In this document: positions 3,105 through 28,402 of the stretch, one piece after another
Position numbering within the stretch: position 1 is the first letter of the stretch
How the letters are laid out: every line of letters starts with the position of its first letter
From: a virus
IMG/VR virus record: IMGVR_UViG_3300045919_000635
Coordinates: 3,186-67,185 of that record
Reading direction: 5' to 3' (one strand)
DNA length: 64,000 nucleotides
Position numbers and translations under genes: made by a program
Notes under the pieces: model-generated
What the model was told of the DNA's origin: nothing
Databases searched by the model: none
Seen by the model: only the letters and a program-made list of their open reading frames with translations

Positions 3105-4007
3105 GTGACCGTATCTACCAACACAAGATTAAGTTACAACGAAGAGGGTAAAAAGCAGCAATTAGAGGTTTCGATAAAGGAAGGGATAGAAGCTGGTAAA
3201 AAAGGATTTCAGCAAGCCGCGATCGCGCTGATGGAGATTGATAACCTTACCCTGTGGCGGAATGAGGCGAAGTCCTTTGATGCCTACCGCCAGAAGTTTA
3301 AAGCGCTACTAGAAGATATGGAAATTTCACCCTCGTATCTGAATAGGTTGATAGCCGCACAGAAATGTGTACAAATGTTAACGCCAATTGGCGTTAACAT
3401 TTCGCAACAAAAGGAAAGTCACGTCCGACCGCTGACTCAACTTAAAGAGCCAAAACAAGTGCAGCAGGCTTACAAGCGAGCTGTCGAGATGGCAGAAATT
3501 CAAGGAGAGGAACCGAAAGCAAAGCACTTTGAGGCAGCTGTAGCCGAAATCAAGCCGCCAAAAGTGAAACTCCCCAAATCACCCCGTATTCCAATTGGCT
3601 CATTAGTGGAAGTGCGATCGCAGTTCCCAGATGAAGAGGTGGTGGGTTGTCAGGGAACCGTAACACAACACCCTAGTAGCGATCGCTGCATAGTGCGGAT
3701 CAAGGAAAACAGCATACTCATCCCCGACAATATGCTTGAAGTTGTTCACGAGACAAAAGAATTTACATCGACTGCTACAGAAGACAAAGAAATAGGGCGA
3801 TCGCTGGGCTTGCGATGTCGAGGCGACAAGGCTTCGCCAACGCACCTACAAATATTGCCAGACGTGGCTAGAAACCAGGGGGAAATGTCTGAAAGCGATC
3901 GGCTTGAGGTAGAGATTGCGATCGCGTCTTTCTTGCGGATACTGCCCAGATTAACACATTCGCAGAAGGGAATGATTTGTGAACAACTCATGAAGGTGGC
4001 AGTATGA
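3105..4007 (+). CDS. Putative DNA-binding protein with KOW/SH3-like C-terminal part
   Basis: AGGAG RBS. SFDAY...YLNRLI..ESHVRPL helical motif, then IGSLVEV..GCQGTV KOW-like motif. Confidence 0.6.
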   Translation: MTVSTNTRLSYNEEGKKQQLEVSIKEGIEAGKKGFQQAAIALMEIDNLTLWRNEAKSFDAYRQKFKALLEDMEISPSYLNRLIAAQKCVQMLTPIGVNISQQKESHVRPLTQLKEPKQVQQAYKRAVEMAEIQGEEPKAKHFEAAVAEIKPPKVKLPKSPRIPIGSLVEVRSQFPDEEVVGCQGTVTQHPSSDRCIVRIKENSILIPDNMLEVVHETKEFTSTATEDKEIGRSLGLRCRGDKASPTHLQILPDVARNQGEMSESDRLEVEIAIASFLRILPRLTHSQKGMICEQLMKVAV

Positions 4008-5938: not shown

Positions 5939-6642
5939 GACTTACTCAAGAGGATTTTTTGAAAGGGCTTGATTTACTTTCCAGCGTGTACGGCGATGAT
6001 TACCCGGTTTTCAAGCATCCTGATATCGCTCAAATCTGGCTAGAGTTTTTTGTAACTAGATGCACCCCTGGTAAGTTTTTCAAGCTAATCAAGCATTATG
6101 TTCAGATGTGTCCCTTTTTCCCTAGAGTGCCAAACGACATTTGCAAAGTTTGGTCAGAGTCGGGGGATGAAAGACCGCCTGGGGAAAATTGGTTGATGAA
6201 CCAACAGCGATCGCTCCTAGCATTACCATCACAAGAAGCGGCTGACAAGGTTAGGGAGATGGAAGAGCTTGCTAATTTGTCGCCTGAAAAGTTGGCAGAA
6301 AACAGAAAACGTGCGACTCTCCTGTATCTGATCATCAATAACCTGAAGTCAATGGCAGTTGATGAAGAAAAAATTAAATACTTGCACACTGCCCCATTGC
6401 ATGAGGTAGAGGCGATCGCTTCTACTTGCGAGAAAGCCAAGCAGTTGGCAGTAGTAGGAGACAAGCATGGCAACTTAAAAGCCAATCCTGATGCCCTTTT
6501 TGAAGATATGCGTAAATACTTTCATTCTGGCAGCGAGAAGTATCGCCAAGTCGCTATTGACTGGGCTAGCAATCCCAACAATGGCTGTCAACTGATTAGA
6601 GACGGCGGACGAGTAGTCGATCTAGAACTTGTAGATTTTTAA
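5935..6642 (+). CDS. Putative helicase loader / replisome organizer
   Basis: ATGA-coupled to the initiator. F.KGL.LL..VY...W...HY....PFFP..P.DI pattern resembles G39P/loader N-termini. Confidence 0.45.
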   Translation: MRLTQEDFLKGLDLLSSVYGDDYPVFKHPDIAQIWLEFFVTRCTPGKFFKLIKHYVQMCPFFPRVPNDICKVWSESGDERPPGENWLMNQQRSLLALPSQEAADKVREMEELANLSPEKLAENRKRATLLYLIINNLKSMAVDEEKIKYLHTAPLHEVEAIASTCEKAKQLAVVGDKHGNLKANPDALFEDMRKYFHSGSEKYRQVAIDWASNPNNGCQLIRDGGRVVDLELVDF

Positions 6643-11574: not shown

Positions 11575-11718
11575 TATAAGATAAAATTATGTTGGTGTAT
11601 GCCTAAATTATCGCAGATAGAGTATTGGTAACTCGATAGAATCGAACTCTACGAAAACAATGCCAAGCTGCACCCTGATACCTATGTTGATGCGATCGCA
11701 TCAATATGGAAAATTCAC

Positions 11719-12152
11719 TCAATAGATATTCGTGGAAAATGCATACATGTACCCATCGTTACGATGAATAAATTTACAGTACTTATGCCGAACTGGACTA
11801 ACTTTTCCAATTAATGTCCTCATCTCAAATACGCCGCTTTCGCGGACGGCTAATCTCCCAACATGAACACCTGCGAACTTTCCGGTAGGAAGAATTGCCC
11901 GTACCATGTCACCGGTCTGGAAACCGAAGAAAGTCTTGCAGCGCGTTCGATGACGAACCGGGAAACCATATTTATTGGTCGTACACATTTGACGATTCCC
12001 CCACCCCTTAGCGACAATCAGCAAGGGTATAGAGGTAACAATTTGCAAGCTTTCCACATCCCCCACGCAGGCAGCATCCAACCAATGCGCTTTAGGTAAG
12101 TTAAACCGGACGCGGTTGTATTTAGTCCTACCACCCGTCGCGGTTTCTACAC
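11719..12152 (-). pseudogene. iscB: Truncated IscB (RuvC-III and C-terminal part only)
   Basis: VETATGGRTKYNR..LPKAHWLDAACVG...HRNDGYMY is nearly identical to the C-terminus of 57729..59027. N-terminus, HNH and omega RNA are absent. Confidence 0.9.
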
Positions 12153-12455
12153 CTCGTTTTCTGGCGCTTGGTTTGGCTTGAGCATATTTGACGGGCGGTA
12201 ACACAGAACTACCATTGTTGGTAAAGCAAGGTTTTGTGGTTCATAAATTTCATGATGACTGAATTCCCATTCGTGTTCAGCTTCTCCATAATGCCCTGCG
12301 GTATAAGTTTCTTTGTAATCGTCAAGATGTAATAGATAGAAGTTAGCGATCGCCTCATCTACAGACAAAAAAGATGTCAAGACGTGGGACAAATGCAAAG
12401 ATTTTCCTTCATCAAACTCAAGTTCTGGGAGCATGTAAAATAATACTTCTTTCAT
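12147..12455 (-). CDS. Hypothetical protein abutting the IscB breakpoint
   Basis: MKEVLFYMLPEL... part of ORF 12147..12512. Confidence 0.4.
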   Translation of the reverse strand: MKEVLFYMLPELEFDEGKSLHLSHVLTSFLSVDEAIANFYLLHLDDYKETYTAGHYGEAEHEWEFSHHEIYEPQNLALPTMVVLCYRPSNMLKPNQAPENEV

Positions 12456-12703
12456 CGTCAGCCGGAGGTGAAAAAGTTGGAACAAGCGTAGCAATTGATA
12501 GTGCAATAGCAATACTTGATTGTATCTTCAGCTTGATTTTTGGCATAATACCATTACTAGTTTTCTTGCATAGAGATGCGGTTCGTTTTCCAGGCAAGCC
12601 GCTTTCTCTACTGCTATTAACTATAAATGCTTGCCTTATGCTTGTCAAGTAACTACTTTGCACTTATAGTAAGTTATGAAAAGTAAATTAAACATAGCAA
12701 AGC

Positions 12704-12940
12704 ATGAAAGTTAGGAAAATTGAACGCAAAGAGGTTGAAGTACCAGACCTCTCTAAACGAATTGCTCAGGCTCACAAAAAAACTGGCAAACCTGTTTCAG
12801 AGGTATGTAAAGCTGTTGGTTTTAGTCGAGCCTACTGGTATCAAGTTGTGAATGGACGCGAAGACGCGATCGCCGAAGATACGCTTCGCAAAATAGAAAA
12901 GATACTAGACGTTAGTTTTGGAGTGAATTTTAATGATTAA
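12704..12940 (+). CDS. Cro/XRE-family HTH regulator
   Basis: VSEVCKAVGFSRAYWYQVVNG HTH, TLRKIEKIL. Confidence 0.85.
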   Translation: MKVRKIERKEVEVPDLSKRIAQAHKKTGKPVSEVCKAVGFSRAYWYQVVNGREDAIAEDTLRKIEKILDVSFGVNFND

Positions 12941-13059
12941 TTTACCATTGTTTTAGCATGGTCACGCCCAAGCGATCGCACTACCACCTTCTCACTCATT
13001 AGTTGCGATCGCTCTTAAAATTAGCTAACAATTAAAAAGTCTAATTACGCTGAATTACC

Positions 13060-13615: not shown

Positions 13616-14134
13616 GTGACAAATCAAGAACTGGAAGAATGGTTTGTATTTGACATGGTTTCCGAGCATGTCGATCCACGTTTTTTGCATTGGCTGGCAC
13701 AACATGGAATTACTGCAAAGGTAAACGCAGCCGGACTCAGGGGATTAATTGCTAATGCACACTCAGCGCTACCCGCATATCTAGTCGATAAGCCAGATGA
13801 TCAAGCGATTACAGTCATGATCCCTTTTTCGTTAAAAATAGGGTCAAGCGAGCTTTTTCCTAATTTTGGAGAATGTCTAGATTCTCACGATTCAATTAAC
13901 GGAAAGCCAAAAAGGTTTAAGTCCAATCCCCTTGACTTTAATTATGGTAGACCAACACGGAAAATATTAATAGAATATTTGGTAAATACACTTGCGATCG
14001 CGGTTGAGTCTATGGAGCGAATTGAGGAGTGCGATCGCATTGGATTAAGAGAAGAATTCTCAGAACAAATCAAATTAATTTCATCACACATAAAAGAATT
14101 GGAATTAGTTCTGAGAAACGAAAATGTAGAGTGA
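13616..14134 (+). CDS. Hypothetical protein
   Basis: 172-aa ORF tightly packed between terS and terL. Confidence 0.6.
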   Translation: MTNQELEEWFVFDMVSEHVDPRFLHWLAQHGITAKVNAAGLRGLIANAHSALPAYLVDKPDDQAITVMIPFSLKIGSSELFPNFGECLDSHDSINGKPKRFKSNPLDFNYGRPTRKILIEYLVNTLAIAVESMERIEECDRIGLREEFSEQIKLISSHIKELELVLRNENVE

Positions 14135-17100
14135 ATGTTGAATTTTGCACTTCCTCATAAAAACATTGCCCCACTACCCGGCATTGCTAGTCCTAAACTC
14201 GCTGCTAAAATTCGTAACGCAGTGCGATCGCAGCAAATCAACCAAGATTGGCGGAATTGGGAAACTTGGAATAGCGCGATCGCATCTTCATCTAGCACTC
14301 AAAACCTTGCTTGGAACTCTTTTGAGCAGTATCGCTTATTAATAAATAATCATAAAACATTTGACCACATGCGAGTGTGGGAAGCTGCCCTAAATACTGG
14401 GGAAGAATCCCGTTATTTGTGGGATATAGCGGGTAAAGATACACTGATACTGGCTCCCCGTGAAAGTGCCAAAGCACAGCCTTTAACTGAGCTAGTTCTA
14501 ACGCCTGATGGTTGGCGATGCATGGGCGAATTAAAGGTGGGTGATGAGGTTATCGCAGGTGATGGAACATTTACCCGAATTACGAAGATAACGCCCCAAG
14601 GAATAAAACCTAGCTACCGAGTAAGCTTTACAGATGGTGCCAGTACTGAATGTTCTGACGATCACTTGTGGGCAGTTAGAAACCTGGCAGGTTCCAACCC
14701 TGGTGAGTTTAAAACAATATCTCTTAATCAAATCAGAACTAAAGTTTTTGTTAGTGCCAAGACTTTAACAACTAAGTCAGTTCGCATTACCGAGATTACT
14801 TATAGGGACGCGACTCCCGAAGAAAAACCGTGGCTTGATTATCGCGGTTATTCTAAATTTTTCATTCCTATTGTTCAGCCAATTCAGTTTTATAGTAAAA
14901 GTTTAGGTATACACCCTTATTTAATGGGTGTATTAATTGGTGATGGGAGTTTGAAAGGGCAATGTATCCCAGCTTTTTCGACGGGCGATCAAGAGATAAT
15001 CCAACTTGTTGAGCAGTGCTTACCAATTGGGTACAGTGTTAAACAAAAAGGCAGCGGGAACAATTATTCTATTACCAAAACAGTTGTAAAGGGGCATCCT
15101 CTTGAAAATATTTTAACCTCGCAGTTGAGGAAAGTAGGATTATTTGAGCGTGGTTCCGTAGATAAATTCATTCCCAAAGATTATTTATTTAGCTCAGTTA
15201 GCGATCGCATAGCATTACTGCAAGGACTAATGGACACAGATGGCACTGTAGCTACAAATAGTAAAGGCGGTGGTAATATAAGTTATTGCACAATCTCTAC
15301 ACAATTAGTTGAGGACGTTGTTGATTTAGTGCGATCGCTTGGTGGTATAGCAACAGTTCAAAAACCCCAACGTAATTGGTATACACATAATGGAGAAAAA
15401 AGACAAGGGCAAGTTAGCTATAAAATTGGCATTAAGTTACCAGAAAATATTCAACCATTTCGCTTAAAAAGAAAGGCTTTATTATATACACCATGCACTC
15501 AGTATAAACCTACAAGAGGAATAACTAATATTGAATATGTGGGCGACACTGAAATGCAATGCATTACTGTTGCTCACCCATCTGGTTTATATATCACCAA
15601 AAATTATATTGTTACTCACAATTCAACTTATTTGGCGCAGTGGGTAAGTTACCAATTTGGGATGCACACCTCACCCTGGCGGCGACTTGCTCTTAAGTGT
15701 TTGGGAGTAAGTTACAACATTGACACGGCGATGCCCCGTAGTCGCCAAATCCAATCAATTATGGAGAGTTCTAAATATCAAGAAATCTTTCCTTGGGTGC
15801 GCCCTTCAAAAAAGAAGTGGGGGGAAAAGGAATGGATGATTGATTTGGAGTGGGCAGGATTGGCAACTACTGAGGAGCAATACTCTTACGTATGTGCTGG
15901 ATTAACTGGTGCTATCAACTCTCGCCGATGCCTTCTTGGTAACACCAAAATTGAAACAAGATGGAACGGCAAGATTCCCATAGCAAGTATTCGAGTGGGG
16001 ATGGAAGTGCTAACTTTCAATGATGCTCGATTTGAAATGGAGTGGAAATTAGTTAAAGCGATCGCATCCCAGCCTGCCACAGAAATTTTACATATTGAAA
16101 CAATCTACGGCTGCACTCTTTCTTGCACTTTCGACCATTTAATCAAAAGCACCCAAGGATATATTGAGGCAGAAAATTTAAAACTTGGCGATCGCTTAGT
16201 CGGATATTACCGCGAAAATGACTATAGCGATTTTCCGTTTACTAGCGTTATTGACACTGTTAAATTAATCACTTCATCTAGAAGAAATTGCCTAGTCTAC
16301 GATATCGAAGTTGAGGACAATCACAACTTTTTCGCTAATAATATTCTTTGCCACAATTGTCACCTAGTGCTACTCGATGATCTAATAAAGTCTCCCGAAG
16401 CTATTCGCGCTCAATCAGTACGCGGGGCAATGGTTTCAAACTGGGAAAACGTCATCCAGTTTACCCGTTACGACGGCTCACGCGCTGTGTGTTTAGGCAC
16501 TCGTATGACCGCTGACGATATATACTGCACCACCTTTCTCAAAGAAAAGGGGTGGAATGTAATTGAGCAGTCAGCACTACTAGAACACCCAGACGGTACT
16601 GAATACAGTTTTTGGGAACCAGAAGACGATAAAGCCCCCGGTATCCCTTTGCGACGGCTGCAAGAGGAGCGGGAAACAACGCCTATCGCATTCGCATTCC
16701 AACGTCAAAATAAAATTGTTCGGGTAAAAGAGCAGTCGTTATCTCCCGATTTAATTGTGCGGGGTATTCTGCCAACACAGTTTTCGCATTTGGTACTTGG
16801 CGTCGATTTATCAGCTGGCTTGAAAGAATCCAACGACTACACAGCTTTTGTATTGGGAGGGGTTCTCATTGAAGGCGAGGTTTTCTCCTATTGGATTATT
16901 GACGCTTGGGAAGATCGGATTATGGGGAACACGCCAAAATTAGACGCGATGATTGAAGTTTGGGATTCCTGGAAACATTTACTACCTCAAACTAGACGCT
17001 ACAACCCAGCATCTGGGGATTGGGACTTATCTCCAGTTCTGGGCTTGGAATTGTGGTTTGATTCGAGCGCTTATGGTTTATCGCTTCAAGGCGACTACGA

Positions 17101-17395
17101 GGATCACATTATCAAGCGAAACCACATCCTTGACTGGCATGTAAAGCCAGTACCAGCATCAGGCAGGGGTGGAAAATTGGAAAGGTTGCGGAGACACACC
17201 GGATTGTTCCACAACCGTCTGATAAAATTTAACATGTATGGGCGGACAATGGCTGATGGTCGCAAACCACTGGGGAGGCTAATTCAGCAGATTACTGAAT
17301 TTGGGTCAACCAGCCACGACGACCTCTGCGATGCCTTCGAGTTGTGCGTTAGTGGGATGCGATCGCACTTACCATTAACCAAGGGGAATTACTAG
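14135..17395 (+). CDS. terL: Terminase large subunit with two inteins (560 aa after splicing)
   Basis: Walker A APRESAK|ST, Walker B LVLLDD, coupling motif LGTR, nuclease GVDLSA..S.DYTA and HDDLCDA. Confidence 0.93.
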   Translation: MLNFALPHKNIAPLPGIASPKLAAKIRNAVRSQQINQDWRNWETWNSAIASSSSTQNLAWNSFEQYRLLINNHKTFDHMRVWEAALNTGEESRYLWDIAGKDTLILAPRESAKAQPLTELVLTPDGWRCMGELKVGDEVIAGDGTFTRITKITPQGIKPSYRVSFTDGASTECSDDHLWAVRNLAGSNPGEFKTISLNQIRTKVFVSAKTLTTKSVRITEITYRDATPEEKPWLDYRGYSKFFIPIVQPIQFYSKSLGIHPYLMGVLIGDGSLKGQCIPAFSTGDQEIIQLVEQCLPIGYSVKQKGSGNNYSITKTVVKGHPLENILTSQLRKVGLFERGSVDKFIPKDYLFSSVSDRIALLQGLMDTDGTVATNSKGGGNISYCTISTQLVEDVVDLVRSLGGIATVQKPQRNWYTHNGEKRQGQVSYKIGIKLPENIQPFRLKRKALLYTPCTQYKPTRGITNIEYVGDTEMQCITVAHPSGLYITKNYIVTHNSTYLAQWVSYQFGMHTSPWRRLALKCLGVSYNIDTAMPRSRQIQSIMESSKYQEIFPWVRPSKKKWGEKEWMIDLEWAGLATTEEQYSYVCAGLTGAINSRRCLLGNTKIETRWNGKIPIASIRVGMEVLTFNDARFEMEWKLVKAIASQPATEILHIETIYGCTLSCTFDHLIKSTQGYIEAENLKLGDRLVGYYRENDYSDFPFTSVIDTVKLITSSRRNCLVYDIEVEDNHNFFANNILCHNCHLVLLDDLIKSPEAIRAQSVRGAMVSNWENVIQFTRYDGSRAVCLGTRMTADDIYCTTFLKEKGWNVIEQSALLEHPDGTEYSFWEPEDDKAPGIPLRRLQEERETTPIAFAFQRQNKIVRVKEQSLSPDLIVRGILPTQFSHLVLGVDLSAGLKESNDYTAFVLGGVLIEGEVFSYWIIDAWEDRIMGNTPKLDAMIEVWDSWKHLLPQTRRYNPASGDWDLSPVLGLELWFDSSAYGLSLQGDYEDHIIKRNHILDWHVKPVPASGRGGKLERLRRHTGLFHNRLIKFNMYGRTMADGRKPLGRLIQQITEFGSTSHDDLCDAFELCVSGMRSHLPLTKGNY
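14474..15622 (+). mobile_element. Class 3 intein (Ala1, WCT motif) with LAGLIDADG homing endonuclease, 383 aa
   Basis: Starts AQPL. Block B DHLW, block F MQCITV, block G VTHN|S. LAGLIDADG motifs LMGVLIGDG and LLQGLMDTDG. Confidence 0.9.
15929..16357 (+). mobile_element. Class 1 mini-intein, 143 aa
   Basis: CLLGNTKI... start, TFDH block B, VYDIEVEDNHNFFANNILCHN|C end. No endonuclease domain. Confidence 0.92.
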
Positions 17396-17398
17396 TTT

Positions 17399-17611
17399 AT
17401 GAAGAATGAAATTGTTGAAAATTATTTAGCAGAATCTGGCTGGGCTGTTTTTAACGATAATCAACCCGTGCGATGCAAATACGGGAAACGAGCGATTAAT
17501 AGTGAAACTGGAGAAGAAGTCCCAATTATTCGGAGATTTAATCCCAAACTTGATCAATCGAAAATCACTATTCACGCAGAATCCGAAGTAATTGTAGATA
17601 GGGAAGCTTGA
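17399..17611 (+). CDS. Hypothetical protein (cassette 1 after terL)
   Basis: 70-aa ORF 3 nt after the terL stop. Confidence 0.55.
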   Translation: MKNEIVENYLAESGWAVFNDNQPVRCKYGKRAINSETGEEVPIIRRFNPKLDQSKITIHAESEVIVDREA

Positions 17612-17700
17612 TACGCACTTTCTCCGACGCTATTCACCAAACAGTGGACAGAGCTAGACAGATCGCACCTACCGTTAACAAAAGGAAATTATTAAATTTT

Positions 17701-18156
17701 ATGACAAATCAAGAGTCGAAAAGTGAAGAAGTTATTGAAGTAATTCACGATGCCGTTGAATTTCTTTACGAACAACTGGTTAAGTTATTAATGGATTGCA
17801 AAGTTAAACCCGGCACACTTACAAAATATACGTTGGGGATGAAAATTATAAATGAGTGCTGGTGGACTGAAGAATCTATATTACGCGAGGATATTAATCA
17901 ACCAATCAAGCGTGACTTCACTAATGCCACCTCGATTCCTGCATCTGACGTAGATGGAAGTTCTAGCCGAACTGATTCAGCATTATTAGCTAAATTAATA
18001 GAAGAAAGAAATCAACGTAAAAAGGCAGATATTGATAATGTAATTTCTTACATGGTTGATACAGCACTATTAACCAAATCATTAGAAGAAAAAACTCATC
18101 GTATCGCATACCTTGAAAAGCTTATTGTCGAATCCGGGATAATTGTAGATCAATAA
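17701..18156 (+). CDS. Hypothetical coiled-coil protein, paralog A
   Basis: MTNQESKSEEVIEVIH...LEEKTHRIAYLEKL, paralogous to the next gene. Confidence 0.75.
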   Translation: MTNQESKSEEVIEVIHDAVEFLYEQLVKLLMDCKVKPGTLTKYTLGMKIINECWWTEESILREDINQPIKRDFTNATSIPASDVDGSSSRTDSALLAKLIEERNQRKKADIDNVISYMVDTALLTKSLEEKTHRIAYLEKLIVESGIIVDQ

Positions 18157-18221
18157 GATCAAGTGGAGTGCGATCGCACTTACAATCGACCAAAGGAAAC
18201 TATTAGTTTTTGCCTAAATTT

Positions 18222-18623
18222 ATGACAAACCAAGAATCAAAAAGCGAAGAAATTATTCAAGTAATTCATGGTGTCGTTGAATCTCTTTATCAACAGATTA
18301 AACTATTGGTAGATGCTAAAGCTAAACCCAGTACACTCAGAAATTACATTTCAGGGATAGAGATTATAAACCAGTGCTGGTTTGATGAGTCTATACGAAG
18401 TGAAAGTCCTAGTCGATTTATTGATTCTCCTACTATTGGTGCTGCTGCTGGCGCTTATCGTTCAATGGGTTTAAGTGGAAGTTTCAGTCAAAACGCAAAT
18501 ATTGATAACGAGATTTTTGCTGCTTTAGAATCAACAACTAAGATGCTAGAAGAAAGAAATCATCGTATAGCGTACCTCGAAAAGCTTGTTGCCGATGCCG
18601 GAATAGCAGATCAACAAACTTGA
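18222..18623 (+). CDS. Hypothetical coiled-coil protein, paralog B
   Basis: MTNQESKSEEIIQVIH...LEERNHRIAYLEKL. Confidence 0.75.
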   Translation: MTNQESKSEEIIQVIHGVVESLYQQIKLLVDAKAKPSTLRNYISGIEIINQCWFDESIRSESPSRFIDSPTIGAAAGAYRSMGLSGSFSQNANIDNEIFAALESTTKMLEERNHRIAYLEKLVADAGIADQQT

Positions 18624-18672
18624 TAGCGCGATACTCATAATTGAGTCACTTCGTGAACGCACTAAATAAAAC

Positions 18673-19407
18673 ATGGGAACTAGAGAAACCGCTTATTTAA
18701 AGTATCTGTCCGGTGACAATACCAGCCTCACCGAAAATCAAATCAACCCCGCCGACATTCCACAATTCCAAAGGATGGCAGCGATCGCCACACAACAGGA
18801 CGGTAATTTAAATTACGCTGATTACCCCGAAGGTGAGGATAATACCCAGTTCCGGCAAACCGTAGGGCGAACTGGGGCAGGGGGAGTAAGTCGGGATGGC
18901 AATACATACATAATCAAAGACCACTACGACTTTAACTCAAAAACCGCTTCACCGGTAGATAGATTGAAGGCGATCGCATCCTCTATCGGCAGCGGCAATC
19001 CTCTGGCTGCATTGTCGCATAGCTCAACTTTTGTTGGTAACGAATTTGACACAAATGCTAGAGTTCCCGTCCCTCTCAATCAACGCGAAAAAGCCCCGGC
19101 ATACAACCCAGAAAATACGGTAATTGGAGGACAGCAGTATCGGTGGGAGGCTTCCCTTGCTCAACCTGGGGAAGGGTATGAAGATGTAGCAAAGACGGCT
19201 TTTGCTGGCAATAAATACGCACCAGACGGCAGCAACCTTGCTCGATATACCCAGATGATTATCAAGCAAAATCAGGGCAATAGCTCTAATATTATTTATA
19301 AGCCGGTAGCCGTAAATCAAGAGCAGCCCAACCAATTGGCAAGTTTATTTGGGAACGTAGCCAGTGGAGTATCAAGCGGAATATCAAGTTTATTTGGACA
19401 GAGTTGA
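18673..19407 (+). CDS. Putative virion protein with possible LysM-like segment
   Basis: 244 aa. AQPGEGYEDVAK resembles a LysM start. G/S-rich amphipathic tail. Confidence 0.45.
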   Translation: MGTRETAYLKYLSGDNTSLTENQINPADIPQFQRMAAIATQQDGNLNYADYPEGEDNTQFRQTVGRTGAGGVSRDGNTYIIKDHYDFNSKTASPVDRLKAIASSIGSGNPLAALSHSSTFVGNEFDTNARVPVPLNQREKAPAYNPENTVIGGQQYRWEASLAQPGEGYEDVAKTAFAGNKYAPDGSNLARYTQMIIKQNQGNSSNIIYKPVAVNQEQPNQLASLFGNVASGVSSGISSLFGQS

Positions 19408-19585
19408 TAGTGCGATCGCATAAACATTATGAATTACCAGCAAGGATACAGAGATGCTATCAACAACCGCCCCCCCGTTTAGATGCATCCTCAGATTATA
19501 ATAAAGGTTACGAACGAGGTAGGAAAAGTCTTTATGGCTACTAAACGCCACCGCGCTAATCAATATCTATATTTGTTAAATCAAT

Positions 19586-22003: not shown

Positions 22004-22483
22004 CTATATTTGCTCAACTTTAATTTTGAAAGTAAGCTCAAACACCAATGGAATTACAATTGGTTGGACTTGTGTATTTTGGGATGCGGGTAAAGCTACT
22101 GAGTACGATTGAGGAAGCGATACTCCTGCGGAGTCACTTCGTGAACGCGCTTCTGTGTTTGGGTTTTGTGCATACCCACCATTACCTTGCATCTGGCTTT
22201 TGAATGCGATCGCATTCTGTAAAGCTTGCAATAATTCCATCTGTGGCATCGAAGGTAGATTATGAAATTCCCGTGGTTGCGGAGTTGGGTTATTTTGCTG
22301 CATCACGGGTGGTGGCTGCATAGGTCGATTTGTATCCCCCGGTGACATGGGTACTTGGGTAGGATCAATAAAACCCGGATAAGCTTGATTTAACCAAGCA
22401 TCGCCTAAGTCACCGCTTTGGACATTTGGGTTATACCTTGGTTGCCCCGGTATTATATGAGAATTAGGATTGTCTTGATTCAC
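22004..22483 (-). CDS. P/Q-rich hypothetical protein
   Basis: 159-aa ORF in the operon. Confidence 0.5.
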   Translation of the reverse strand: MNQDNPNSHIIPGQPRYNPNVQSGDLGDAWLNQAYPGFIDPTQVPMSPGDTNRPMQPPPVMQQNNPTPQPREFHNLPSMPQMELLQALQNAIAFKSQMQGNGGYAQNPNTEARSRSDSAGVSLPQSYSVALPASQNTQVQPIVIPLVFELTFKIKVEQI

Positions 22484-22785: not shown

Positions 22786-23018
22786 AAAAGTTATTCTTCA
22801 AAGTGTTCAATCTTCAGTAATTTGCCGTTTACAAATTCCCATCGGCTTACTAAGTGTGCGTAGTCTGACCCTGGCGAAGTGTAAATTTTGATTTTGTCTT
22901 CTTCAATTTCAAAGTTTTGATTACTGGCTTGAAGCATGGAAATAATTTGTTCTTTATCAGAAAAAGATTTGCTCATGGTTTATTATTCTTAAAAATATAC
23001 CTTTATTAATATTTTGAC

Positions 23019-23399
23019 ATGGATGCTAACATTATTAATTCTCAATCCCAAATTATCGTTACGCTGCAAGAAAAATTAGTGGAAGCGATCGCCAAAGGGG
23101 ATTGGAGCGCAACAGACAATTGGGGGAAATACCTATATAATGCGGTATTAGTTTACGGTAATCTCGCCCAGGAAAACTTTATGACATTAAAAGAAAATAT
23201 CGAATATCTCGCTAAAGCGATCGCCGACAAAGATGCTCTGATTGCCAACCTTCGGACAGAAAACACCAACCTCAAAACAGAGAATGAACTGCTGAAATCG
23301 GATGATGCTACCGATAAAACTCAAATTTTAGATTTTGCAGAAGGGCAAAAAGCAGCAGAAGCGCTAGTTGTTAGCCTGCAATCTATCCAACCAGGTTAG
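23019..23399 (+). CDS. Coiled-coil hypothetical protein (counter-oriented moron)
   Basis: 126 aa, followed by a hairpin at 23405-23436. Confidence 0.55.
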   Translation: MDANIINSQSQIIVTLQEKLVEAIAKGDWSATDNWGKYLYNAVLVYGNLAQENFMTLKENIEYLAKAIADKDALIANLRTENTNLKTENELLKSDDATDKTQILDFAEGQKAAEALVVSLQSIQPG

Positions 23400-23503
23400 T
23401 TAGTTCCCGCCGACTAGCATTTAACTAGTTAGCGGGTTTATTCGGATTTTAAACGTAGAGCTTTAGTAACGTGTAATAATTCTACCATGTATGAATAATA
23501 GTT

Positions 23504-23926
23504 ATGCCAAAGTATTACGATTCTCCAGACCAGATAAGGGAAACACTTGGTTTAAAACCTTGGGATGAGTTTAAGAAAAAGATTAAGGATGATACAAGTA
23601 ACCTTGGAATCAGTTCCATTCCCCGTGAGTTTATAGATAAAAATAGGCGCACTGGGCGAACAACTAAAATGCTTGTAGATGCAGTATACGAGGCTCAATC
23701 AAAGATAGTTGCCATCTCAGCGTATAATGAAAAATATGAAAAAAGCTTAGTCTCACAAGCCAGATTAATGTGCGATAGAGTGGGAATTACGAGAGACAAT
23801 ATCCACTCTTATCAAGAAGCAAAACGAAATAATGTAAGAGAGTTTAGTTTATTTTCTGACCATTATTCAGGGATGCCACAGGGTGACATTCCCATACAGT
23901 CTAGTATTCTCCACCGTATAGCGTGA
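23504..23926 (+). CDS. Small protein with degenerate P-loop
   Basis: RRTGRTTKML resembles a Walker A motif. Confidence 0.5.
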   Translation: MPKYYDSPDQIRETLGLKPWDEFKKKIKDDTSNLGISSIPREFIDKNRRTGRTTKMLVDAVYEAQSKIVAISAYNEKYEKSLVSQARLMCDRVGITRDNIHSYQEAKRNNVREFSLFSDHYSGMPQGDIPIQSSILHRIA

Positions 23927-24389
23927 CATGAATGGGGGATGCGATCGCCGTCGTCAACGCAAACCCCCACTGAATCGGACGCAAAGTAGAATTTATCCGC
24001 AGTCCTTGAAAGCTTGACAAGTCACCATTTTGAGGCACGGGAAACAAGATATCTTTCAACGGCATTTTATAACTTGGTAGTTCAACCGCTGCATCATAAC
24101 TAGCCGCCGCGATCGCTCTAGATGCAGCCTTCCTCCACTTGGGCGATGTCTCATCTAATAACTGATAAAACATCATTACAGTGGTAGCCACAATCGTCCC
24201 TGTCAGTTGTAAATCAATCATTTCGACTAATGCCCCATTCCCTTGGCTATAAGTATCACTGGTGCTGTATGCAATTACAGGAGTAGTGCCAGGGGTTGAA
24301 GGGGTGCAAACTTGGGTTGTTAAATCAACAACTCCCAATATCCCCATTGTTTGCATGAATGCGGGGGAGGTGTTTGGTGCATCAGACAT
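23901..24389 (-). CDS. Putative structural protein
   Basis: Beta-rich 162 aa ending YGGEY, in the head operon, with GGAG RBS. Confidence 0.55.
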   Translation of the reverse strand: MSDAPNTSPAFMQTMGILGVVDLTTQVCTPSTPGTTPVIAYSTSDTYSQGNGALVEMIDLQLTGTIVATTVMMFYQLLDETSPKWRKAASRAIAAASYDAAVELPSYKMPLKDILFPVPQNGDLSSFQGLRINSTLRPIQWGFALTTAIASPIHVTLYGGEY

Positions 24390-27794: not shown

Positions 27795-28402
27795 AGTATT
27801 CCCAGATTGATGGACTTCTGGGTAATAGCTTTCAAGACGTGGGAGCGCAATGCATACTTTGCTTCTACGTCTTTTTTTTAATAAAGGAAGGAGTTCGTGG
27901 GAAGAAGGAAGAAGGTTGAAAAGGAAAGAAATAAATAGAGATTTTTCATCCTTCTTCCCTCTTCCTTCGTTCAAAAGATGAGGTATTCGTTGTCATTATA
28001 AAATACGTTTTTAGGGCGTTTACTCGTATTTGTGTTTTTTACATTTATGCAAAGTTAAATACATTAAAAAAATAAAAAACTACCCAAAATTATTTTCAAT
28101 TTGGGCAGCTAATAATTATTAATTGAGGTAGCGCGTTCGCGAAGCGTTGCCGTACTCGGCATCGCATTAATTGAGATGCGATCGCATTGATCCATCCTTA
28201 CGGTAAAGATTTGTTAAGACCAATTGGTCTTAACAATACGCAACAACTCAAGAAAAGCGATGTCGTTCGCGCTTGCGTCCGATCTGCGGAGGCGACAAAG
28301 CTTCTCTTCTCCTGTCGGAGACGCCAAGGGCGAACGAGAGGCACGCGGCTACGCTAACGCACTTCGATTCATGCGATCGCACTCAATCAACAAGAGAAAA
28401 AA

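Follow-up and report, generated by a model that had tools for sequence, protein, structure and literature searches.

Some integrative elements use the 3′ ends of tRNA or protein genes as insertion sites, carry a replacement end, and leave tandem partial copies of it behind, using their own integrase and an identical att core. In homology-facilitated illegitimate recombination, a homologous anchor combined with a microhomology joint yields a partial duplicate of the end of a flanking gene. Modular shuffling through PeSL elements in the hyperplastic regions of T4-type phages is described in passages of Arbiol et al. 2010 (PMC2839356), and phage mosaicism by relaxed homologous recombination is treated in parts of De Paepe et al. 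2014 (PMC3945230). In this study, we examine the region behind terL, the gene for the terminase large subunit, in the linear 67-kb metagenomic virus record IMGVR_UViG_3300045919_000635 (46% complete according to CheckV), of which a 64-kb part, positions 3,186 to 67,185, was analyzed and is called the window. The last 12-15 codons of terL are present three times here. With moderate confidence, we explain the two extra copies as recombination scars in a hyperplastic hotspot behind terL, left by short-homology or illegitimate recombination between related phages. The locus is an unusually legible footprint of the acquisition of ORFan genes by phages: the scars hold the terminase frame and stop yet differ at nearly every silent site, so that import can be told from duplication in place, a distinction rarely possible at mosaic joints.

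The locus also bears on HIP1, an octamer palindrome hyper-abundant in the host, whose function has puzzled cyanobacterial biologists for three decades. Reports of HIP1-associated recombination in cyanobacteria include Akiyama 1998 and Robinson 1997, as cited in PMC4390886, and Kamoku & Nielsen (bioRxiv 10.1101/2024.09.10.611283). HIP1 has been connected with plasmid site-specific recombination, low-level illegitimate excision, and Chi-like or uptake roles (PMC4390886 and the preprint). Recombination and DNA uptake in hosts are likewise linked to HIP1 in parts of PMC13756078 and PMC9239245; phage cassette exchange is not the subject of the HIP1 passages of the latter. Our data do not show a recombination role for HIP1, although a locus with graded numbers of cassettes (0, 1, and 4) among relatives provides a concrete test bed for one.

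Three copies of the terL tail

The gene and the three copies of its end are as follows:

14135..17395, + strand: terL, terminase large subunit, 1086 amino acids, two inteins (open reading frame [ORF]; phrog_38; Pfam)
17351..17395, + strand: tail copy 1, the functional last 15 codons of terL, SGMRSHLPLTKGNY and stop; HIP1 at 17359-17366
17660..17695, + strand: tail copy 2 (scar), RSHLPLTKGNY and stop; 6 of the 8 HIP1 bases
18162..18206, + strand: tail copy 3 (scar), SGVRSHLQSTKGNY and stop; HIP1 at 18170-18177

The C-terminal part of TerL matches phrog_38 (terminase large subunit, E 4.7e-23), and the Pfam matches of the gene are to intein and LAGLIDADG domains. Within the 64 kb, a degenerate pattern built on the three copies has no matches other than those at 17361-17395, 17661-17695, and 18172-18206 (3 matches observed against 0 expected, with 0 in 100 shuffles), and a repeat search returns a 51-nt family, D2, at 17351, 17651, and 18162, the latter two being 61% and 80% identical to the first. 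The tail shared by all three is 36 nt long (eleven residues and a stop) and starts one base into the HIP1 octamer at 17359-17366; it reads RSHLPLTKGNY in copies 1 and 2 and RSHLQSTKGNY in copy 3, and the octamer is intact at 17359 and 18170. Homology to terL begins at the Arg codon in copy 2 and 8 nt upstream of HIP1 in copy 3, which retains three codons 5′ of the octamer (SGV, vs. SGM in terL). The bases of these codons agree with copy 1 at 7 of 9 positions and with the real terL allele of a relative, L026, at 8 of 9. A fourth scar, considered in the 3′ end of the downstream MGTRET gene (D6, 17/21 nt), was judged a chance match to an internal SG[VI]SS repeat.

Copies 1 and 2 differ at 8 of 36 bases, each time synonymously (P 1.5-3e-5 for 8 random substitutions); spread over about 8.3 synonymous sites, these differences amount to saturation. 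Had copy 2 drifted neutrally at 0.2-0.29 changes per site, the absence of any change over its ~27.7 nonsynonymous sites would have a probability of 2e-3 to 8e-5. Copy 2, with synonymous changes only, thus diverged as coding terL DNA and not as a drifting in situ duplicate. Over its final 18 bases, it matches the real terL end of L026 exactly. Copy 3 differs from copy 1 at 7 bases, four of them synonymous and three falling in two adjacent codons (PL to QS), a pattern that is marginal by itself (P = 0.055 for at least 4 of 7 synonymous). Tails 2 and 3 differ at 9 of 36 bases, far fewer than expected from the 0.567 per neutral site in the paralogous genes adjacent to them (P = 1e-4). From these substitution patterns, we conclude that both extra tails were functional terL ends during most of their past. 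Copy 3, with damage in two codons, is the older scar, and the undamaged copy 2 a recent one.

A prediction made earlier from the letters of the window (hereafter the original prediction) had placed three recoded terL tails here, each followed by a different small gene and two of these genes being paralogs, and had taken the tails for former terL ends of related phages. Sequence reading and pattern search bear out the positions and peptides, the small genes are as described (see below), and the claim of former terL ends is supported by the synonymous-only divergence of copy 2, the conservation between tails 2 and 3, and the 18-nt identity to L026. The same prediction called the HIP1 of copy 2 partly eroded. 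Six of the eight bases do remain, yet the erosion itself may simply be the codon choice of the donor: the Arg codon that reads CGA in copy 1 and AGA in copy 2 is AGA or AGG in the real terL alleles of the relatives L007 and L026.

The inserted block and its counterparts in relatives

Behind the tails lie these features:

17399..17611, + strand: orf70, an orphan gene, with its ATG 3 nt past the terL stop
17612..17659, + strand: 48-nt spacer from orf70 to scar 2, in frame with both, after a TGA stop
17701..18156, + strand: MTNQ-a, an orphan of 151 amino acids, with its ATG 5 nt past the stop of copy 2
18210..18623, + strand: MTNQ-b, a paralog of MTNQ-a, starting at TTG 18210 or ATG 18222
18620..18662, + strand: right edge of the block, a stop and HIP1-bearing spacer that aligns to the terL-stop spacer of L024
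18673..19407, + strand: the MGTRET gene, 244 amino acids, itself a cassette, present in L005 and not in L008, with HIP1-bearing motifs on both sides

Each tail is thus followed within 3-15 nt by a small ORF. The three small genes, orf70, MTNQ-a, and MTNQ-b, are single ORFs on the + strand and are promoterless (4 promoter-like sites vs. 6.0 expected; neither promoter nor terminator matches exceed chance). MTNQ-a and MTNQ-b are 42% identical (E 5.6e-22) and differ at 57% of their synonymous sites. No Pfam or PHROG family was assigned to any of the three, orf70 and its spacer have no homology in any of the relative loci examined, and a structure search of the cassette proteins (Atlas) was uninformative, with a best score of 0.76 from a model of pLDDT 0.59. 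The last ~21-33 nt of orf70 resemble the 3′ end of MTNQ-a at 18130-18162 (23/33 nt alike; also found as repeat D16), and in an ungapped scan of 85 gene ends only these two ends and the terL tail (26/33) exceed the background of at most 21. Unit A (the first tail with orf70) has in common with the other units only the tail and this 3′-terminal stretch.

Relatives were taken as distinct loci in which the C-terminal part of TerL is at least 49% identical, and the lineage is thinly sampled:

L005 (= L009, L017, L024): Tolypothrix brevis metagenome-assembled genome contig, TerL C-terminal part 99% identical in amino acids
L008 (= L010): 75%
L006 (= L011, L018): Aetokthonos hydrillicola, 72-73%
L026: 72%
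L007 (= L002, L012): Chlorogloeopsis fritschii PCC 6912 chromosome, 70-71%
L027: 55%
L023: 50%
L013: 49%

Against L024, the DNA of the window is ~86% identical; the C-terminal part of terL is 99% identical in amino acids and 86% in nucleotides, with 0.57 of synonymous sites differing (pS) and a nonsynonymous divergence (dN) of 0.015. The homology stops at the last sense codon of terL (17391) and restarts at 18668, 5 nt before MGTRET, so that the block 17392-18667 measures 1276 nt in the window and 27 nt in L024. The native stop and HIP1-bearing spacer stand behind MTNQ-b rather than behind copy 3. A step in pS at the array, expected had one unequal crossover joined two lineages, was not seen; pS lies between 0.31 and 0.68 in 10 of 11 segments (0.57 in the C-terminal part of terL, 0.44 in MGTRET; the terL N-terminal segment, taken out of frame, is left out of the comparison). 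The lack of a step indicates that both flanks belong to one native backbone and that the block has two joints. Since copy 2 is undamaged, it would have become a scar long after the split from L005, which argues for an insertion here and not a deletion there, on the assumption that scars evolve neutrally.

Several side observations concern this comparison. The two intein sites of terL, 14677-15527 and 15918-16357, are not the same in the closest relative: in L024 the first holds only 120 nt and the second 9 nt, so that the second intein is absent there. In the window, a 25-nt hairpin mini-element (18633-18657) splits the HIP1 of the right-edge spacer. Elements of this kind, 25-27 nt long and within a split HIP1 (GCGAT and CGC on either side), occur in the window at 18633-18657 and at about 22112-22145. 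The genome behind L005 has 27-29 copies, often in tandem clusters (L043 1440-1800), and every copy read there sits between GCGAT and CGC. The element resembles small dispersed repeats that passages of PMC4390886 report as inserting into HIP1. In the window, 11705-12972 is a 1.27-kb segment with HIP1 at both edges where L024 has 51 nt; it holds a free-standing HNH endonuclease gene at 11719-12204 (− strand; phrog_2214, E 3.7e-33). orf172 (13616-14134; phrog_20502, unknown function) lies between the upstream gene and terL, a space of 527 nt compared with 3 nt in L024, and has no HIP1 at its edges. Small purine-rich insertions starting ggaaggagttcg are found at window 27886-27984 and at L024 (reverse complement) 6388-6497, two different places, each in one genome only; they may be another miniature mobile repeat.

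The region downstream of terL is a cassette hotspot. The number of genes between terL and the NYQQGYRD gene is 0 in L008, 1 in L005, and 4 in the window, in agreement with the original prediction that cassette number would vary among relatives. The NYEQGYRD gene of L008 has a start that overlaps with the stop of terL; its homolog in the window starts at 19429. L005 has terL, a 27-nt HIP1-bearing spacer, and MGTRET, without the three cassettes; the window has orf70, MTNQ-a, MTNQ-b, and MGTRET. The ORF behind terL in L006 encodes 105 amino acids and matches HNH only weakly (E 8e-4, below the cut-off); L007, L026, and L023 have unrelated sequence there. MGTRET has homologs (P0005-P0009), and in a further viral locus, L025 (47% in the MGTRET alignment), the gene does not adjoin terL. 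L026 and L027, read separately, extend only 1.5 kb and 0.09 kb downstream of terL. As for the wider searches, blastn of 16400-19500 against a phage collection gave zero matches, and tblastn of the C-terminal part of TerL against it gave one distant cultured phage, Synechococcus phage S-EIVl (36.6%). Scans of viral contigs (with TerL, the TerL alignment, and the tail pattern) returned only L002 (= L007), L023 (50%), and two 25% matches, and a metagenome scan returned L005 and L006 again, along with four 41% relatives. Matches were found in 5 of 401 genomes at the level of the order and 12 of 389 at that of the family, the only new close relatives being L026 and L027.

Weighing the explanations

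The reading that we favor, recombination scars behind terL, would take the following form. In a sparsely sampled Nostocales (pro)phage lineage with a hyperplastic hotspot behind terL, each scar would represent the final 12-15 codons of a terL allele with a history as coding DNA, either in a related phage or in the same lineage before import. A unit of terL end, leader, and small gene would have been joined behind the functional terL end, whereupon its tail would become noncoding. The joints would be of the short-homology or illegitimate type, with one side probably anchored in conserved flanking sequence, and the terL-end piece may either have traveled with the incoming gene or have been displaced by it. 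Long or near-identical repeats would be expected to recombine and delete the cassette, which could keep the scars short and divergent in DNA, and their 3′ halves may persist as a purine-rich ribosome-binding stretch and spacing for the next gene.

On the order of events, we lean toward scars that arrived with their genes. Copy 1 is the closest to the orthologous tail of L005 (32/36 bases, compared with 29 and 27 for the other two copies), and the native stop-spacer lies behind MTNQ-b. The same two facts seem contrary to the order in the original prediction, in which each insertion restores the terL end and pushes the old one downstream, although that order also predicts the decay gradient seen in the copies. 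With 36 nt, there is little power to tell the native tail or the direction of events.

Several observations weigh against the favored reading. Among 5.8e9 proteins, MTNQ-a has its paralog as the only match besides itself, and orf70 has no match but itself, which offers no donor. Each terL-bearing relative has one tail and none has an extra one (window plus 23 loci, several of them duplicate views); the tail pattern finds only the own functional tail of one genome (G001) among 389 family genomes and 0 matches in viral contigs, and a donor lineage with the unit behind a functional terL was found in neither proteins, viral contigs, nor the 389 genomes. The 67-kb record yielded no recombinase of any kind. 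Units B and C (tail and MTNQ gene) are homologous throughout (repeats D2-D5 and D9) and have a start-to-start spacing of 511 nt each. This homology and equal spacing, together with the 3′ end shared by orf70 and MTNQ-a, leave room for a component of in situ amplification. Finally, no more than 9 nt separate the two scar joints, both of them at or close to a single HIP1, which hints at a preferred site.

That hint leads to the first alternative, in which HIP1, or a phage-specific boundary element bearing it, is the preferred crossover and host or phage functions insert, excise, and stack single-gene cassettes. We regard this as possible, though unlikely. Both scar joints are 0-8 nt from the terL HIP1, the right edge of the block is 6 nt from a HIP1 conserved in L024, and the published links to recombination and uptake cited above are in keeping with it (PMC4390886; bioRxiv 10.1101/2024.09.10.611283, in the passages concerned). 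HIP1 lies at both edges of 3 of the 8 tallied cassettes (the HNH gene at 11719-12204, MGTRET, and the candidate cassette ORF 345-617), which, against a baseline of 0.11 each, is suggestive only (P = 0.05). The stop-stop-HIP1 motif TTGATAGNGCGATCGCA occurs exactly three times in the window, always at gene ends (250-266, 633-649, and 19404-19420), and twice in five host genomes (~39 Mb), one occurrence being the phage locus itself. Beside these, a degenerate version of TTGATAGNGCGATCGCA is seen at 18620-18636, and a 27-nt double-HIP1 direct repeat (241-267 and 624-650) brackets the 90-aa ORF 345-617, which has no Pfam family.

However, the original prediction of crossover precisely at the octamer does not fit joints that differ in position by 9 nt, copy 2 joining at the Arg codon and copy 3 at 8 nt outside the octamer, nor an octamer that is not intact in copy 2. 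HIP1 is also common by default: the window has 168 sites in 64 kb, at an intergenic density twice that of coding DNA, and HIP1 lies within 10 nt of 28 of 84 gene junctions and within the last 45 nt of 8 of 85 genes. The check that the prediction proposed, a coincidence of breakpoints with HIP1, gave no support, with 5 of the 26 edges of 13 gaps between the window and L024 lying within 10 nt of a HIP1 in either genome compared with 3.0 expected (P = 0.18). Three of the tallied cassettes (orf172, orf108, and orf140) have HIP1 near neither edge, and two insertions, the cassette array and a 295-nt insertion at 22787-23083, have it near one edge only in the window. Integrase, resolvase, RecT, and ERF were not found in the record, nor was a structured site at the tails, and survivorship of short scars would by itself put joints within ~50 nt of the stop, a space of which HIP1 takes up much.

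The same footprint is moreover seen without HIP1, contrary to the dependence of the scars on HIP1 that had been proposed: a tail scar (23400-23417) and a head duplicate (19534/19816) each flank an insertion that lacks it. The terL case is the clearest scar in the genome, yet not the only one. orf140 is a 493-nt insertion relative to L024, between the true 3′ end of the gene at 23901..24389 (− strand), which ends LYGGEY-stop, and a degenerate second copy of that end (LVGGN-stop) at 23400-23417. For orf108, the insertion relative to L024 measures 267 nt and is bracketed by the opening five codons of the next gene (MATKR), which stand at both 19534 and 19816 and differ by one synonymous change. 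At the orf140 and orf108 sites, the alignments with L024 overlap by 12 and 15 nt, respectively. orf140 itself (window 23400-23921) belongs to phrog_5437, of unknown function, and is absent in L024. HIP1 is at most a favored microhomology and not a dedicated recombination site. We doubt that HIP1, alone or within TTGATAGNGCGATCGCA, serves as a portable crossover point for the stacking and exchange of single-gene cassettes in HIP1-saturated phages of filamentous cyanobacteria, and find it just as doubtful that such a system would form a recombinase-independent or host-recombinase-dependent analogue of integron and PeSL traffic with the terL scars as its by-product. If this were true, a hyper-abundant palindrome of the host would serve phage cassette exchange.

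A second alternative, which we consider unlikely, is tandem amplification in situ of the terL tail with an MTNQ gene by unequal crossover, followed by divergence and by replacement of most of the gene of the first unit by orf70. It would account for the homology of units B and C from tail through gene (42% at the amino acid level) at equal 511-nt spacing, and for the likeness of the orf70 and MTNQ-a 3′ ends (23/33 nt, above the background of at most 21). However, noncoding duplicates should decay without codon periodicity, and the copy 2 differences are all synonymous; the tails are also far more conserved than the synonymous sites of the paralogs (P = 1e-4), and gene conversion from copy 1 would wipe out the synonymous differences that are observed.

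It is improbable that the repeats are kept for a present function, whether as a translation-initiation leader or as translated peptides (orf70 read via its TGA into scar 2, giving a small protein that bears the TerL C-terminal peptide). A purine-rich stretch does lie ~14-19 nt before the next start (for MTNQ-b counted from TTG 18210, with 12 nt more from ATG 18222), the homology of copies 1 and 3 continues through the stop to the start codon, and orf70 and scar 2 share one frame, with 16 codons between them and the TGA as the only stop. A leader role, however, does not predict variation at third positions only. Scar 3 is out of frame with MTNQ-a, neither scar has an in-frame start before it, TGA serves as a stop in related terL genes, and an in-frame open spacer would arise by chance in an estimated 1 in 7 to 8 cases.

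Lastly, it is very improbable that an assembler concatenated strain variants of one locus, for although this is a metagenomic viral contig present in only one run and known from the assembled contigs of that run, a second assembler's contig from the probable source run carries 16900-19500 in one piece with zero differences (not independent data), and the longest run of identical bases common to the tail copies is 15, too short for assembly paths to be joined through it. The contigs of that run show neither variants nor joints over the stretch.

Comparison with known systems

The original prediction likened the locus to an integron, with HIP1 as the att core. In the 67-kb record, itself only 46% complete, Phage_integrase (PF00589) has 0 matches (the control is positive in 14 of 14 genomes), and Resolvase, RecT, ERF, and Rad52-like families have zero. 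Single-stranded folds of the three repeats are not significant (z −0.69, −0.73, and −1.12), and no inverted repeats pair the tails except the HIP1 palindrome itself. With neither a tyrosine or serine recombinase in the record nor an attC-like fold, the integron-like machine finds no counterpart here. As in integron arrays, promoterless single ORFs are stacked in one orientation, each with a repeated boundary sequence; unlike them, the locus lacks an IntI-type recombinase, an attC-like imperfect palindrome, and a shared exact core, and its joints differ in position. The integrative elements of gene 3′ ends are similar in that the target gene stays intact and partial 3′ ends accumulate downstream as direct repeats. 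They differ from the units seen here, which are 0.3-0.5 kb long with one tiny gene, have no integrase found in the record, and carry repeats that are diverged alleles.

The reports of HIP1-associated recombination share with this locus the presence of HIP1 at or near several joints, one HIP1 here being interrupted by a hairpin element. In the passages concerned, they deal with host plasmids, cloned inserts, and transformation, whereas the association with breakpoints in the window is not statistically established.

The PeSL regions of T4-type phages are functionally similar. In the relevant passages of Arbiol et al. 2010 (PMC2839356), short repeats flank single ORFans, close relatives differ by the gain, loss, and replacement of these genes, and recombination between repeats is the proposed driver. 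Here, too, repeats flank ORFans that vary between close relatives, the block being absent from L005/L024. The PeSL repeats as described there consist of a strong promoter and a terminator stem-loop, whereas those behind terL are coding remnants of a gene end, with neither promoter nor terminator above chance.

Relaxed-recombination mosaicism, in the parts of De Paepe et al. 2014 (PMC3945230) that describe it, likewise involves exchange between diverged relatives with traces at fragment borders; it differs in that Rad52-like, RecT, and ERF proteins were not detected in the 67 kb here, and in that the anchor and the donors are inferred. A partial copy of a flanking gene end at the edge of an insertion or deletion, as expected of a mosaic scar, is present behind terL and in two further cases, and the divergence is codon-aware (8 of 8 differences synonymous in copy 2; 4 of 7 in copy 3, P = 0.055). 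The neutral decay of noncoding parts expected of a tandem duplication is not what tails 2 and 3 display (9/36 vs. 0.567 per site, P = 1e-4). The terL scars are best read as a footprint of ordinary phage gene shuffling, a known kind of event, and not of a new integron-like system.

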